A stretch of DNA of 20,962 bases from a virus. Its lineage: Duplodnaviria; Heunggongvirae; Uroviricota; Caudoviricetes. Position 1 is the stretch's first letter, and the number at the start of each line of letters is the position of its first letter. Of this stretch, positions 5,650 through 13,378 are shown in pieces. Location of the stretch: IMG/VR virus record IMGVR_UViG_2671181136_000003. One strand, given 5' to 3'. Both the position numbers and the translations under genes were made by a program. The notes under the pieces were generated by a model that saw only the letters and a program-made list of their open reading frames with translations, ran no database searches and was not told the DNA's origin.

Positions 5650-5670
5650 AACCGCTGCGGCGGTTTTTTT
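5650..5670 (+). terminator. Short GC hairpin plus T7 tract (terminator-like) between terL and the capsid gene
   Basis: AACCGC-TGCG-GCGGTT followed by TTTTTTT; the next gene's RBS CAGGAGG is 6 nt downstream. Nearly identical to the element at 13358-13378. Confidence 0.3.
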
Positions 5671-5687
5671 ATTTTCAGGAGGCTGAT

Positions 5688-7625
5688 GTGACTCTTAAAC
5701 GGGCCTGTTCCCTGCTGACGGTGAAATCCTTCAGTGAGGATGAACGGGTGATCACCGGGATTGCGTCAACGCCTTCTCCGGATCGGGATGGTGACATCCT
5801 GGAGCCGGAGGGGGCTGAGTTTGGCAGTACGATCCCGTTTCTCTGGCAGCATGACCATTCCCGCCCTGTAGGACAGTGTACGGTGCGTCGGGTCAGGGAA
5901 GGGCTGGAAATCACGGCAATGCTGGTGAAGCCGGAGCCGGGGATGCCCTCCCAGATGGCAGCCCGGCTGGATGAGGCCTGGGCTGCCATTAAGACCGGGC
6001 TGGTCAGGGGGCTTTCTGTGGGCTTCCGGCCCCATGAATACACTTATCTGGACGGAGGCGGACTGCATTTTCTGCGCTGGGATCTGATGGAGGTGTCTGC
6101 CGTCACCGTGCCCGCGAATGCGGAATGCACCATCCGGACCATTAAATATTTCGACCGCCCGTTTTCTGCCGCGTCCGGCAACCGGAAACCGGTGGTGAAA
6201 ATCGCATCTTCTGCCGGCGCTTCGGCACAGTCAATAACCTCTTTTCATAAGGAAAAGTCAGCAATGAATACTGGTGAACAGATTAAAAGTTTTGAAAACA
6301 AGCGTGCGGCGCTGGCAGCCTCCCTTGAGGAGATCATGAACAAAGCCGCAGAGGAAGGCCGCACACTGGATGTGGAAGAGGAAGAGCACTACGACAACAC
6401 CGCAGCGGAAATCCGTCAGGTGGATGCGCACCTGAAGCGTCTGCGTGAACTGGAAACCAGTAAGGCCGCCACGGCACAGCCGGTGAAACAGGCCGGTAAC
6501 GGGAATGTGGCCACGGTGGCTTCAGCGCCGGTGATCCGTGTTGAGCAGAAACTGGAGAAGGGGATTGGTTTCGCCCGCTTTGCCAAATCACTGGCCGCGG
6601 CTAAAGGTGTCCGCTCTGAAGCCCTGGAAGTGGCCCGTCGTCAGTATCCGGATGACAGCCGTCTGCATCATGTCCTGAAATCGGCGGTGGGGGCAGGGAC
6701 CACCACGGACCCGCAGTGGGCAGGCAGCCTGTCTGAATACCAGGAATATGCGCAGGACTTTATTGATTACCTGCGTCCGCAGACCATTATCGGGCGATTT
6801 GGTCAGGGCGGGATCCCTGCACTTCGTCAGGTGCCGTTCAATATCCGCGTGCATGCCCAGGTGTCCGGTGGTGCTGCCGGCTGGGTGGGTGAGGGTAAGG
6901 CCAGACCCCTGACGAAGTTTGATTTTGAATCCATCACCTTCAGTCATGCGAAAGTGTCGGCCATTGCGGTACTGACGGAAGAATTGATCCGTTTTTCCAG
7001 TCCGGCTGCTGATGCACTGGTCCGTAATGCGCTGGCGGAAGCGGTGGTGGCGCGTCTGGACACAGACTTTGTGGACCCGAAAAAAGCGGCGGTGGCGGAT
7101 GTCTCCCCGGCGTCCATCACCCATGATGTGAAGGGCACGGCATCAACCGGTAACCCGGATGCGGATGCCGAGGCCGCGTTTGGCCAGTTTGTGACGGCAA
7201 ATCTGCAGCCCACCGGTGCGGTCTGGCTGATGTCCAGCACCAATGCCCTGGCGCTCTCCATGCGTAAAAATGCGCTGGGGCAGAAGGAATATCCGGACAT
7301 GACCTTGCTGGGCGGGACCTTCCAGGGGCTGCCGGTGATTGTCTCCCAGTATGTGGGTGACCAGCTGGTACTGGTGAATGCACCGGATATTTATCTGGCT
7401 GATGACGGCGGTGTGGCGGTGGATATGTCCCGTGAAGCGTCACTGGAGATGCAGTCTGAACCGACCAGCGACAGCAGCACACCGTCACCGGTGGAACTGG
7501 TCTCCATGTTTCAGACCGGCAGCGTGGCCATCCGTGCGGAGCGCTGGATCAACTGGCGTCGTCGCCGTACCGCGGCAGTGGCGGTGATCACCGGTGTGAA
7601 CTACGGAACTGCGTCCGGTGGCTGA
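5688..7625 (+). CDS. Fused prohead protease (HK97 family) - major capsid protein (HK97 fold)
   Basis: GTG start with RBS CAGGAGG. The N-terminal ~170 aa carry prohead-protease-like motifs (PFLWQHD, GLSVGF, EVSAVTVPAN). A coiled-coil delta-domain-like stretch follows (ENKRAALAASLEEIMNKAAEEGRTLDVEEEEHY), then a ~400-aa capsid-like region. Confidence 0.8.
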   Translation: MTLKRACSLLTVKSFSEDERVITGIASTPSPDRDGDILEPEGAEFGSTIPFLWQHDHSRPVGQCTVRRVREGLEITAMLVKPEPGMPSQMAARLDEAWAAIKTGLVRGLSVGFRPHEYTYLDGGGLHFLRWDLMEVSAVTVPANAECTIRTIKYFDRPFSAASGNRKPVVKIASSAGASAQSITSFHKEKSAMNTGEQIKSFENKRAALAASLEEIMNKAAEEGRTLDVEEEEHYDNTAAEIRQVDAHLKRLRELETSKAATAQPVKQAGNGNVATVASAPVIRVEQKLEKGIGFARFAKSLAAAKGVRSEALEVARRQYPDDSRLHHVLKSAVGAGTTTDPQWAGSLSEYQEYAQDFIDYLRPQTIIGRFGQGGIPALRQVPFNIRVHAQVSGGAAGWVGEGKARPLTKFDFESITFSHAKVSAIAVLTEELIRFSSPAADALVRNALAEAVVARLDTDFVDPKKAAVADVSPASITHDVKGTASTGNPDADAEAAFGQFVTANLQPTGAVWLMSSTNALALSMRKNALGQKEYPDMTLLGGTFQGLPVIVSQYVGDQLVLVNAPDIYLADDGGVAVDMSREASLEMQSEPTSDSSTPSPVELVSMFQTGSVAIRAERWINWRRRRTAAVAVITGVNYGTASGG

Positions 7626-7669
7626 GTCTGATGAGGAGGGCGGGAGGCGCGAGCTTCCCGCAGTAACAG

Positions 7670-7891
7670 ATGGCAAAAATCCAGTATCTGCAGGGCACGC
7701 ATGATGCCCGGGCCGGGGATATCCGTGATGTGGCACAGCCGTGTGCGGAGGTGCTGGTTCGCCTGGGGAAGGCGGAGTACATCACAGCGCGACGTCCGGC
7801 AGGTCAGAAAAAGAAACGTGATGCGGAGCATGGCGAATGTGGAACCTTTTGCGGCGAACCCGAAAAAACCAGAAATCAGGACGTGACGTAA
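7670..7891 (+). CDS. Hypothetical small ORF (73 aa) between capsid and portal genes; may not be a real gene
   Basis: Listed only in the ORF track; weak RBS; overlaps the portal start by 55 nt; no family recognised. Confidence 0.2.
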   Translation: MAKIQYLQGTHDARAGDIRDVAQPCAEVLVRLGKAEYITARRPAGQKKKRDAEHGECGTFCGEPEKTRNQDVT

Positions 7892-12664: not shown

Positions 12665-12669
12665 GGCTT

Positions 12670-13044
12670 ATGGCAAAAGATCTGAAAACACTGGCGCTGG
12701 CCAGACTGTCGGGGTTCCGTCATAAAACGGTGAAGGTGCCGGAATGGAGAAATGTCAGCGTGGTGCTGCGGGAGCCTTCGGCAGAGGCCTGGTATCTGTG
12801 GCAGGAAGTGCTCAATGGTGATGGAGAGGATGACGATACTCTGTCGGTGGTGGCGAAAACCCGCCGTAACCTGGAAGCGGATGTGACGCTGTTCTGCGAT
12901 GTCCTGTGTGATACTGACCTGCAACGGGTGTTCACTCCGGACGACCGTGAGCAGGTGCTGGCCGTCTATGGTCCGGTACATGCCCGGTTGCTGCGTCAGG
13001 CACTGGAACTGATCGCTGATGCAGAGTCGGCCAGAAAAAAGTAG
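12670..13044 (+). CDS. Tail assembly chaperone (lambda gpG analog)
   Basis: 124 aa, acidic, between major tail and tape measure genes; ends ...AESARKK with the slippery heptamer A_AAA_AAG at 13035-13041 at its 3' end. Confidence 0.75.
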   Translation: MAKDLKTLALARLSGFRHKTVKVPEWRNVSVVLREPSAEAWYLWQEVLNGDGEDDDTLSVVAKTRRNLEADVTLFCDVLCDTDLQRVFTPDDREQVLAVYGPVHARLLRQALELIADAESARKK

Positions 13045-13349
13045 CCCGCCCGGAAATTCGCTTTCTGATGCGACTTGCGCTCCGTCTGGGGCGCACCTTA
13101 TCCGAACTGCGGCACAGCCTGAGTGCGAGCGAGGCGATGATGTGGATGGAGTTCGACAGGGTATCCCCGCTGGGTGATGAGCGCGGGGATATCCGTAATG
13201 CACAGATCGTGAAAGCGGTTTTCGGGGCACAGGGGATGAATGTTGCACTGAAGGACGCCATGCTCTGCTGGGGCGAGGATGAGGATAAGCCGGAGGTGGA
13301 TCCGTTTGCGGCGCTGGAAGACGCGCTGAGCCTTGCAGCACAGTCATGA
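12670..13349 (+). CDS. Tail assembly chaperone frameshift product (gpGT analog), predicted -1 frameshift at 13035-13041
   Basis: The downstream ORF (track 13068..13349) is in the -1 frame relative to the G-like ORF and stays open back through the slippery site (VARPEIRFLMRLAL...). The arrangement matches the conserved G/GT frameshift of long-tailed phages. Confidence 0.6.
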
Positions 13350-13357
13350 ATGATGAG

Positions 13358-13378
13358 AACCGCTGAGGCGGTTTTTTT
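13358..13378 (+). terminator. GC hairpin plus T7 tract (terminator-like) just upstream of the tape measure gene
   Basis: AACCGC-TGAG-GCGGTT followed by TTTTTTT; 20 of 21 positions identical to the element at 5650-5670. Confidence 0.3.

Follow-up and report, generated by a model that had tools for sequence, protein, structure and literature searches.

Why would a phage late operon, which must be read from one virion gene into the next, carry what look like transcription terminators directly in front of several of these genes? The question is raised by a 20,962-nt stretch of DNA (IMG/VR record IMGVR_UViG_2671181136_000003, hereafter the window), which represents the late region of an Escherichia coli lambdoid prophage resembling the Shiga toxin (Stx) phages and begins within the lysis genes. 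Three GC-rich hairpins, each with a run of six to seven T residues flush with its stem, lie on the coding strand in intergenic DNA upstream of the genes for a protease-capsid fusion (element 1), the major tail tube protein (element 2) and the tail tape measure protein (element 3). These elements are real and far from chance, their positions are conserved among related phages, and we consider them very probably to be terminator hairpins maintained by selection. They may serve to halt unmodified RNA polymerase while letting Q-modified polymerase pass.

Three intergenic hairpins with the anatomy of intrinsic terminators

The three elements are as follows.

5649..5670, + strand: element 1, GAACCGC-UGCG-GCGGUUU followed by U7; stem 5649/5650-5666, T run 5664-5670; -10.7 kcal/mol
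11909..11931, + strand: element 2, AACCCGC-CGCGU-GCGGGUU followed by U6; stem 11909-11927, T run 11926-11931; -10.6 kcal/mol
13357..13378, + strand: element 3, GAACCGC-UGAG-GCGGUUU followed by U7; stem 13357-13374, T run 13372-13378; -10.8 kcal/mol

A reading of these letters without database searches (the sequence-only reading) had described three hairpins with T tracts, each placed between a stop codon and a ribosome-binding site, and had likened them to intrinsic terminators inside one late operon. The sequences were confirmed at these positions, and each folds with a flush U run. The predicted folds have stems of 6–9 bp, loops of 4–5 nt and free energies of -10.6 to -10.8 kcal/mol. All sequence features of Rho-independent terminators are present, including the GC-rich stem-loop, the U tract on the transcribed strand overlapping the 3' arm (T7, T6 and T7 in elements 1 to 3) and a location outside translated RNA, the elements starting 24, 20 and 8 nt past the stop codons of the terminase large subunit (TerL; 5622-5624), tail completion (11887-11889) and T (13347-13349) genes, respectively. 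Element 1 has a C(UGCG)G tetraloop, which belongs to the UNCG class.

The coordinates of the flanking genes also bear out the placement. Element 1 is followed by AGGAGG at 5677-5682 and the GTG start codon of the protease-capsid fusion at 5688, element 2 by AGGAGG at 11938-11943 and the ATG of the tube gene at 11948, and element 3 by the ribosome-binding site of the tape measure gene and its ATG at 13397. The distance from the U run to the strong Shine-Dalgarno sequence is 6–7 nt for elements 1 and 2, which share the string TTTTTTAT(T/A)TCAGGAGGC on their 3' side. The gaps that hold elements 1, 2 and 3 measure 63, 58 and 47 nt and contain no open reading frame (ORF). The elements are in sense orientation within a single co-oriented late gene block, all genes of interest being on the + strand. 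The sequence-only reading took the downstream genes to encode the three most abundant structural proteins; this is wrong for the tape measure, which is a low-copy virion protein (gpH in lambda).

Two other interpretations of the anatomy were rejected. The elements are not terminators for the opposite strand, as the complementary strand forms a hairpin but without a U run. Nor did a promoter scan reveal any internal promoter beside the hairpins, and the 6–7 nt between the U run and the Shine-Dalgarno sequence leave no space for one. Upstream of element 3, a slippery heptamer A AAA AAG (13035-13041) lies just 5' of the stop codon of the tail assembly chaperone gene G, in the conserved G/G-T arrangement for programmed frameshifting. 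Since this frameshift is needed to read T, most ribosomes would stop at 13044, about 310 nt before element 3.

A strict scan for perfect stems of 6 bp or more, four or more of the pairs being GC, with a loop of 3–6 nt and a T6 run, recovered exactly the three elements on the + strand of the window and none on the - strand, compared with a mean of 0.007 sites on both strands in 300 dinucleotide shuffles. Intergenic DNA amounts to only 250 nt (1.75%) of the operon at 3403-17671, and all three elements fall within it. A looser terminator scan is uninformative alone, giving 21 sites against 17.3 expected and missing element 3, which we attribute to its stem-extension rule. Among the four gaps longer than 40 nt in the operon, three are filled by the elements, and the fourth (7626-7669, after the capsid gene) contains another hairpin.

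7640..7661, + strand: fourth intergenic hairpin, 9 bp with a GCGA loop and no U run, directly 3' of the capsid gene

The surrounding region (7615-7680) folds with a predicted -24.7 kcal/mol (z -2.2), and the hairpin is probably an element acting at the RNA level rather than a terminator. Together with element 1, this hairpin frames the capsid gene, just as elements 2 and 3 frame the tube-G-T block.

Sequence identity between elements 1 and 3

As the sequence-only reading had noticed, elements 1 and 3 are identical at 20 of 21 positions (22 of 23 with flanks); both match AACCGCTGNGGCGGTTTTTTT exactly. No further match to AACCGCTGNGGCGGTTTTTTT with up to three mismatches occurs in the window, where 0.01 would be expected. 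It had been proposed that this recurrence points to selection. We scanned IMG/VR for exact occurrences of AACCGC-N4-GCGGTTTTTT, which was found in at least 120 viral contigs. Among the 82 matches examined, 52 were in contexts unrelated to the window genes, 20 preceded tape measure homologues and 9 preceded protease-capsid homologues. The common design is a 4-bp CCGC/GCGG core that A-U pairs prolong into the U run, in many cases with a UNCG tetraloop. Since the hairpin is of a generic terminator type that recurs in unrelated phage settings, little weight attaches to the near-identity of elements 1 and 3, and the idea that they duplicate one particular mobile or functional repeat was rejected. 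Selection itself was upheld on other grounds, and the real evidence for it lies in the conservation found at each site rather than in similarity between sites.

The elements could not be assigned to a known RNA family, as the only Rfam matches, which fall on the terminator ends of isrK (24.7 and 23.7 bits, threshold 50), isrD (22.7 bits, threshold 37) and the trp leader, were all below threshold. In both isrK alignments, the best-aligned part with the highest confidence was the terminator hairpin with its U run. No link was made with the small RNAs of enterohaemorrhagic E. coli (EHEC) prophages; anti-sRNAs are placed near the late promoter (PMC4104026) and, in the available text, HnrS 'within the late genes' (PMC13502914).

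Conservation and covariation at the tail tube junction

The strongest conservation was found in front of the tube gene. A scan of GTDB with one genome per species, based on alignment of the tube protein, yielded 59 loci, with tube protein identities of 41–98%. These loci come from Escherichia, Klebsiella, Enterobacter, Serratia, Pectobacterium, Pantoea, Erwinia, Proteus, Providencia, Morganella, Xenorhabdus, Rahnella and even Salinicola. A hairpin with a T run precedes the tube gene in all 59 of them. Hairpins at the same junction are also present in HK97, Salmonella phage FSL SP-016, phi467, a Klebsiella phage, a Morganella phage and Pseudomonas phage D3. No insert was seen between the tail completion and tube genes in any of the 59 loci.

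We further aligned the 55 distinct sequences of this junction. In each of them the hairpin lies 19–27 nt upstream of the ATG, and 5–9 T residues (median 8) occur within the 9 nt that follow the GC core. The stems themselves vary widely, with 17 distinct 5' arms, and pairing is preserved throughout: 89% of the alignment cells are paired compared with 67% in shuffles (0/500). Covariation scores 0.556, compared with 0.155 for shuffled alignments (0/500) and 0.06–0.20 when the pairing partners are slid, and double (compensatory) changes are seen in six of the six pairs. A check of conservation across related phages, which the sequence-only reading had proposed, found the hairpins conserved, with compensatory changes in their stems. 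About half of the loops are of the C(UNCG)G type; such loops fold fast, as would suit a signal for termination under kinetic control better than a static structure.

The spacer of about 20 nt immediately 5' of the hairpin (11890-11908 in the window) is C/A-rich and nearly free of G in almost all relatives, a composition that would prevent the 5' arm of the hairpin from pairing elsewhere. The possibility that the hairpins mark boundaries of mosaic recombination was not supported, as identity to the window remains steady at element 2 among 80 close relatives.

Conservation at the capsid and tape measure junctions

Hairpins recur at the other two junctions as well. At the junction of TerL with the protease-capsid gene, a hairpin was found in 37 of 70 distinct IMG/VR relatives and is absent where the junction is tight. 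At this junction Salmonella phage FSL SP-016 and Pseudomonas phage IME307 have hairpins with T runs whose stems differ. Across the capsid and tape measure sites, different stems recur in Salmonella, Klebsiella, Pseudomonas D3-like and other phages. Hairpins directly after the capsid gene, as at 7640-7661 in the window, were also seen in FSL SP-016, IME307, HK97, lambda and D3.

Upstream of the tape measure gene, 31 of 53 GTDB loci have a hairpin, which is absent where the gap spans only 12–32 nt. Its presence is strongly associated with inserted DNA: of 21 loci that have 300 nt or more inserted between T and the tape measure gene, 20 have the hairpin, as opposed to 11 of 32 loci without an insert (Fisher p ~9e-6, not corrected for relatedness). 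Unrelated ORFs occupy this place in FSL SP-016 and a Klebsiella phage. Close E. coli relatives possess a variant stem, AACCUGC/GCAGGUU, in which both arms are extended by an extra base pair and the flanks are nearly identical; among the 80 close relatives, element 3 is a small hot spot of divergence between near-identical flanks. When the three elements were considered as terminators of morons, neither an inserted gene nor a nearby promoter-like site was found at any of their gaps (63, 58 and 47 nt) in the window.

Lambda provides a further comparison. A terminator-like hairpin at 6097-6118 (extending to 6127) with two T7 runs lies in the D-E gap, directly before the capsid gene E; a UUCG hairpin is located just after E (7163-7180), and another hairpin precedes J (15462-15483). 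The pattern of a hairpin before a major virion gene is hence not limited to HK97-like modules.

Relation to known systems

Terminators within late operons have been annotated in phages since 2000. The closest counterpart is HK97, whose GenBank record (AF069529) lists seven 'putative terminator' features, located between the portal and protease genes, after the capsid gene, between gp11 and the major tail gene, after the major tail gene, between the gp15 moron and the tape measure gene, and before genes I and J. The records of HK633, HK544, HK75 and mEp234 likewise have 'terminator' features under the blastn matches. Element 2 corresponds to the HK97 terminator at 6692-6719 and element 3 to that at 8398-8422. 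The junctions (tail completion with major tail gene, T or moron with tape measure gene), the orientation and the anatomy are the same in both phages; a visible relationship to element 2 is seen in the hairpin that HK97 has before its major tail gene, AACCCGCC-AGAT-GGCGGGTT, and an analogous terminator precedes the HK97 protease-capsid genes. The differences are that in HK97 the tape measure terminator follows the gp15 moron, whereas the window has no moron there, and that HK97 has extra terminators after the capsid and tube genes, whereas in the window the hairpin after the capsid gene lacks a U run and the gap between the tube gene and G is only 5 nt. The order of head genes also differs, as TerL directly precedes the protease-capsid fusion in the window.

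The P22-like phage L is also predicted to have Rho-independent terminators in a late operon that is believed to be transcribed from a single promoter by antiterminated polymerase. The roles of these intra-operon terminators 'are not known', and partial termination or the stopping of spurious, non-antiterminated transcription have been offered (PMC8022706). The virion genes of phage L are unrelated to those of the window, and its terminators are placed at the end of the procapsid module.

In Stx phages, Q controls the late transcript at tR' (StxS), and Q-independent promoters, namely Pstx1 and a tRNA promoter, are found inside the late operons (PMC7547250). Like the elements, lambda-type tR' is an intrinsic terminator in the sense direction, and its override by Q-modified polymerase has been proven; unlike them, it lies immediately 3' of the late promoter and is established by experiment, whereas the elements are 10–20 kb further downstream and known from sequence. 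A relative with 97.7% identity over 3400-17000 encodes a Q-like antiterminator ahead of stx2, the lysis genes and the virion genes, all in one orientation. A more distant analogy is offered by Tn916 and other conjugative elements of Gram-positive bacteria, whose long operons reportedly contain terminators against premature expression that are bypassed by dedicated antitermination (PMC11658703, PMC8191782). Only the logic is comparable, since the elements, hosts and antitermination factors are unrelated.

The three elements belong to a kind of feature for which the HK97 group already has annotations and which earlier publications have discussed, and no new mechanism is involved. What is added here is the universal hairpin at the tube site and the association with inserts at the tape measure junction.

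Possible functions of the elements

The retention of a GC-rich, fast-folding stem and a contiguous U run through heavy sequence turnover bears the signature of selection acting on termination itself. The unmodified RNA polymerase of E. coli would be halted in the usual manner, by folding of the GC-rich hairpin, pausing at the U run and release. The unmodified enzyme could originate from any promoter except the late promoter, or from leakage past the late-promoter terminator in the lysogen, and would be kept from entering the head module by element 1, the tail-tube module by element 2, and the tape-measure and tail-tip module by element 3. After induction, polymerase loaded with Q at the late promoter would read through all three elements, and the virion genes would be expressed by Q-modified polymerase only. 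Because the operon must be read past these sites, and because elements 1 and 2 precede the genes in highest demand, we infer that the elements stop only the unmodified enzyme; partial termination during lytic growth would seem counterproductive in front of the genes needed most. Read-through by antiterminated polymerase was the first option of the sequence-only reading and is our preference as well. In the transcript, protection of RNA ends by the hairpins and effects on translation are possible secondary roles. Intrinsic termination of unmodified polymerase combined with Q-dependent read-through has, as a complete explanation, roughly even prospects of being correct, and the insulating role is proposed tentatively, at slightly short of even.

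Several observations weigh against this explanation. The Q gene and the late promoter lie outside the window, and dependence on Q rests on the relative mentioned above. The promoter scan gave 6 promoter-like sites against 10.7 expected, with one on the + strand; with so few sense sites upstream, the spurious transcription that the elements would stop is conjectural. Lambda shares the same regulatory logic without room for terminators between U and V or between T and H, and these tight junctions imply that the elements are not a general requirement of Q-controlled operons. In addition, the constant spacing of 19–27 nt between hairpin and start codon could reflect a role in downstream translation.

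The elements could alternatively act as partial terminators (attenuators) in lytic growth, a fraction of late transcripts ending at each hairpin and thereby setting the mRNA dose of the gene blocks. The direction of such attenuation plausibly fits element 3, as the need for the tube protein and chaperone G, by the stoichiometry established in lambda, far exceeds that for the tape measure and tip proteins encoded downstream. Terminator-like hairpins also follow both the capsid and the tube gene in HK97 and the capsid gene in D3. Attenuation is also one of the two roles named for phage L (PMC8022706). Elements 1 and 2 run in the wrong direction for this purpose, following low-copy genes (terminase and tail completion) and preceding those in highest demand, and Q-modified polymerase is broadly resistant to terminators (PMC7547250), which makes attenuation an unlikely account of the set. 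If instead the hairpins blocked 3' exonucleases or served as protective 5' stem-loops after cleavage, they would delimit long-lived mRNA segments. The bracketing of the capsid gene and of the tube-G-T block suits this idea, as does similar bracketing in HK97 and around lambda E by the two hairpins described above, and late gene messages of lambda reportedly differ in functional half-life. A stabilizing hairpin needs no U run, yet 5–9 T residues are kept in all 55 tube-site sequences; the hairpin after the capsid gene, which has no U run, exemplifies a site where structure alone is present. We therefore view RNA stability or processing as quite an unlikely primary function.

A role in translation would draw on the U-rich tract as an enhancer that binds ribosomal protein S1, with the hairpin keeping the ribosome-binding site from pairing with upstream coding RNA. 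The narrow spacing of hairpin and ATG across the 55 diverse sequences, the strong AGGAGG within 6–7 nt after elements 1 and 2 and the downstream string shared by these two elements are consistent with such a cassette. An S1-type enhancer does not require a GC-rich stem flush with a U run, though, relatives with tight, hairpin-free junctions express the same genes, and the same element precedes the tape measure gene, which is not highly expressed; tight spacing is also expected from genome compaction alone. A translation cassette is accordingly very improbable as the main function. For element 3 alone, a terminator of morons has to be considered, either as a relic left after gene loss or as a resident terminator exploited by new morons. 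This is the reading to which the excess of hairpins in insert-bearing loci (20 of 21 against 11 of 32 insert-free ones) speaks, together with the position of the HK97 hairpin behind the gp15 moron and the unrelated ORFs in FSL SP-016 and the Klebsiella phage. The 47-nt gap of the window holds no inserted gene, and element 2 would remain unexplained, its hairpin being universal in the absence of any insert. A moron-terminator role for element 3 is fairly unlikely, and it is compatible with, rather than opposed to, termination of unmodified polymerase.

Other features of the window

Positions 3400-17000 are 97–98% identical to long-tailed Stx1a-, Stx2a- and Stx2c-converting phages (Sawaravirus and relatives), and 5174 of 5426 complete E. 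coli genomes show some match to the window. The late genes around the elements are listed below with the basis of their assignment.

3403-3966, + strand: terminase small subunit gene
3963..5624, + strand: TerL gene, 5' of element 1 (Pfam TerL_ATPase and TerL_nuclease; relative's annotation)
5688..7625, + strand: prohead protease (S78) fused to HK97-type major capsid protein, 3' of element 1 (Pfam Peptidase_S78 and Phage_capsid)
7837-9201, + strand: portal gene
Between the portal and tail completion genes, + strand: connector genes
11545..11889, + strand: tail completion / tail terminator gene, 5' of element 2 (Pfam Tail_completion_gp17; relative's annotation)
11948..12664, + strand: major tail tube gene with a C-terminal Ig-like domain, 3' of element 2 (Pfam tail tube families and Ig domains)
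12670-13044, + strand: tail assembly chaperone gene G (Pfam Phage_TAC_1 and Phage_tail_T for G and T jointly; sequence and frames)
13068-13349, + strand, -1 frame: tail assembly chaperone gene T (same joint Pfam assignment)
13397..16639, + strand: tail tape measure gene, 3' of element 3 (Pfam Phage_HK97_TLTM, TMP_3 and Tape_meas_lam_C)

The major tail tube protein is 67% identical to gp12 of HK97. The end of its gene that encodes the Ig-like domain (12500-12700) is the most divergent block among the 80 close relatives, about 37 of which are less than 90% identical to the window there, with flanks at 96–99%. Downstream of the portal gene, an ORF at 9198-10421 (407 aa) is named 'portal protein' in related records; a Pfam search gave no portal match for it and two weak matches below the curated cut-offs. 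In the lysis gene region, a strong 9-bp hairpin at 601-625 (+ strand, -13.9 kcal/mol) is followed by GTTTGTGTTT and may be another, imperfect terminator 5' of the virion genes. Finally, a tail-gene segment of about 1.2 kb occurs in three copies within 17090-20900, at spacings of 1184 and 1685 nt, with most of the compared 300-nt blocks 96–100% identical. Runs of N at 18251-18273 and 20091-20111 lie just before copies 2 and 3, and instead of a genuine triplication, this seems to be an artefact of scaffolding or assembly, or masked sequence.

Implications for phage and prophage biology

A bolder view would treat the cassettes as obligatory 'gates' that precede the most strongly translated virion genes, are kept through more than 50% protein divergence and admit only Q-modified polymerase. 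The lysogen would thereby be spared costly leaky expression of capsid and tail proteins that could trigger host defence sensors, and the resident terminator between T and the tape measure gene would turn this junction into a preferred landing pad for morons, as these require a terminator. The presence of tube-site hairpins in 59 of 59 loci and their link with inserts at the tape measure site are compatible with such gates and are not proof of them; we regard the proposal as speculative and, on balance, unlikely. If it holds, it would explain how prophage-rich pathogens such as EHEC silence many near-identical sets of virion genes despite internal promoters, and it would also explain the build-up of morons at particular junctions.

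The question is an old one and its scope is modest. In practical terms, the elements should be annotated in the genomes of Stx phages, and they are relevant to the engineering and expression of phage structural modules. The tube-site element, which is present in every relative examined across the Enterobacterales and also in Pseudomonas phage D3, offers a clean model site.

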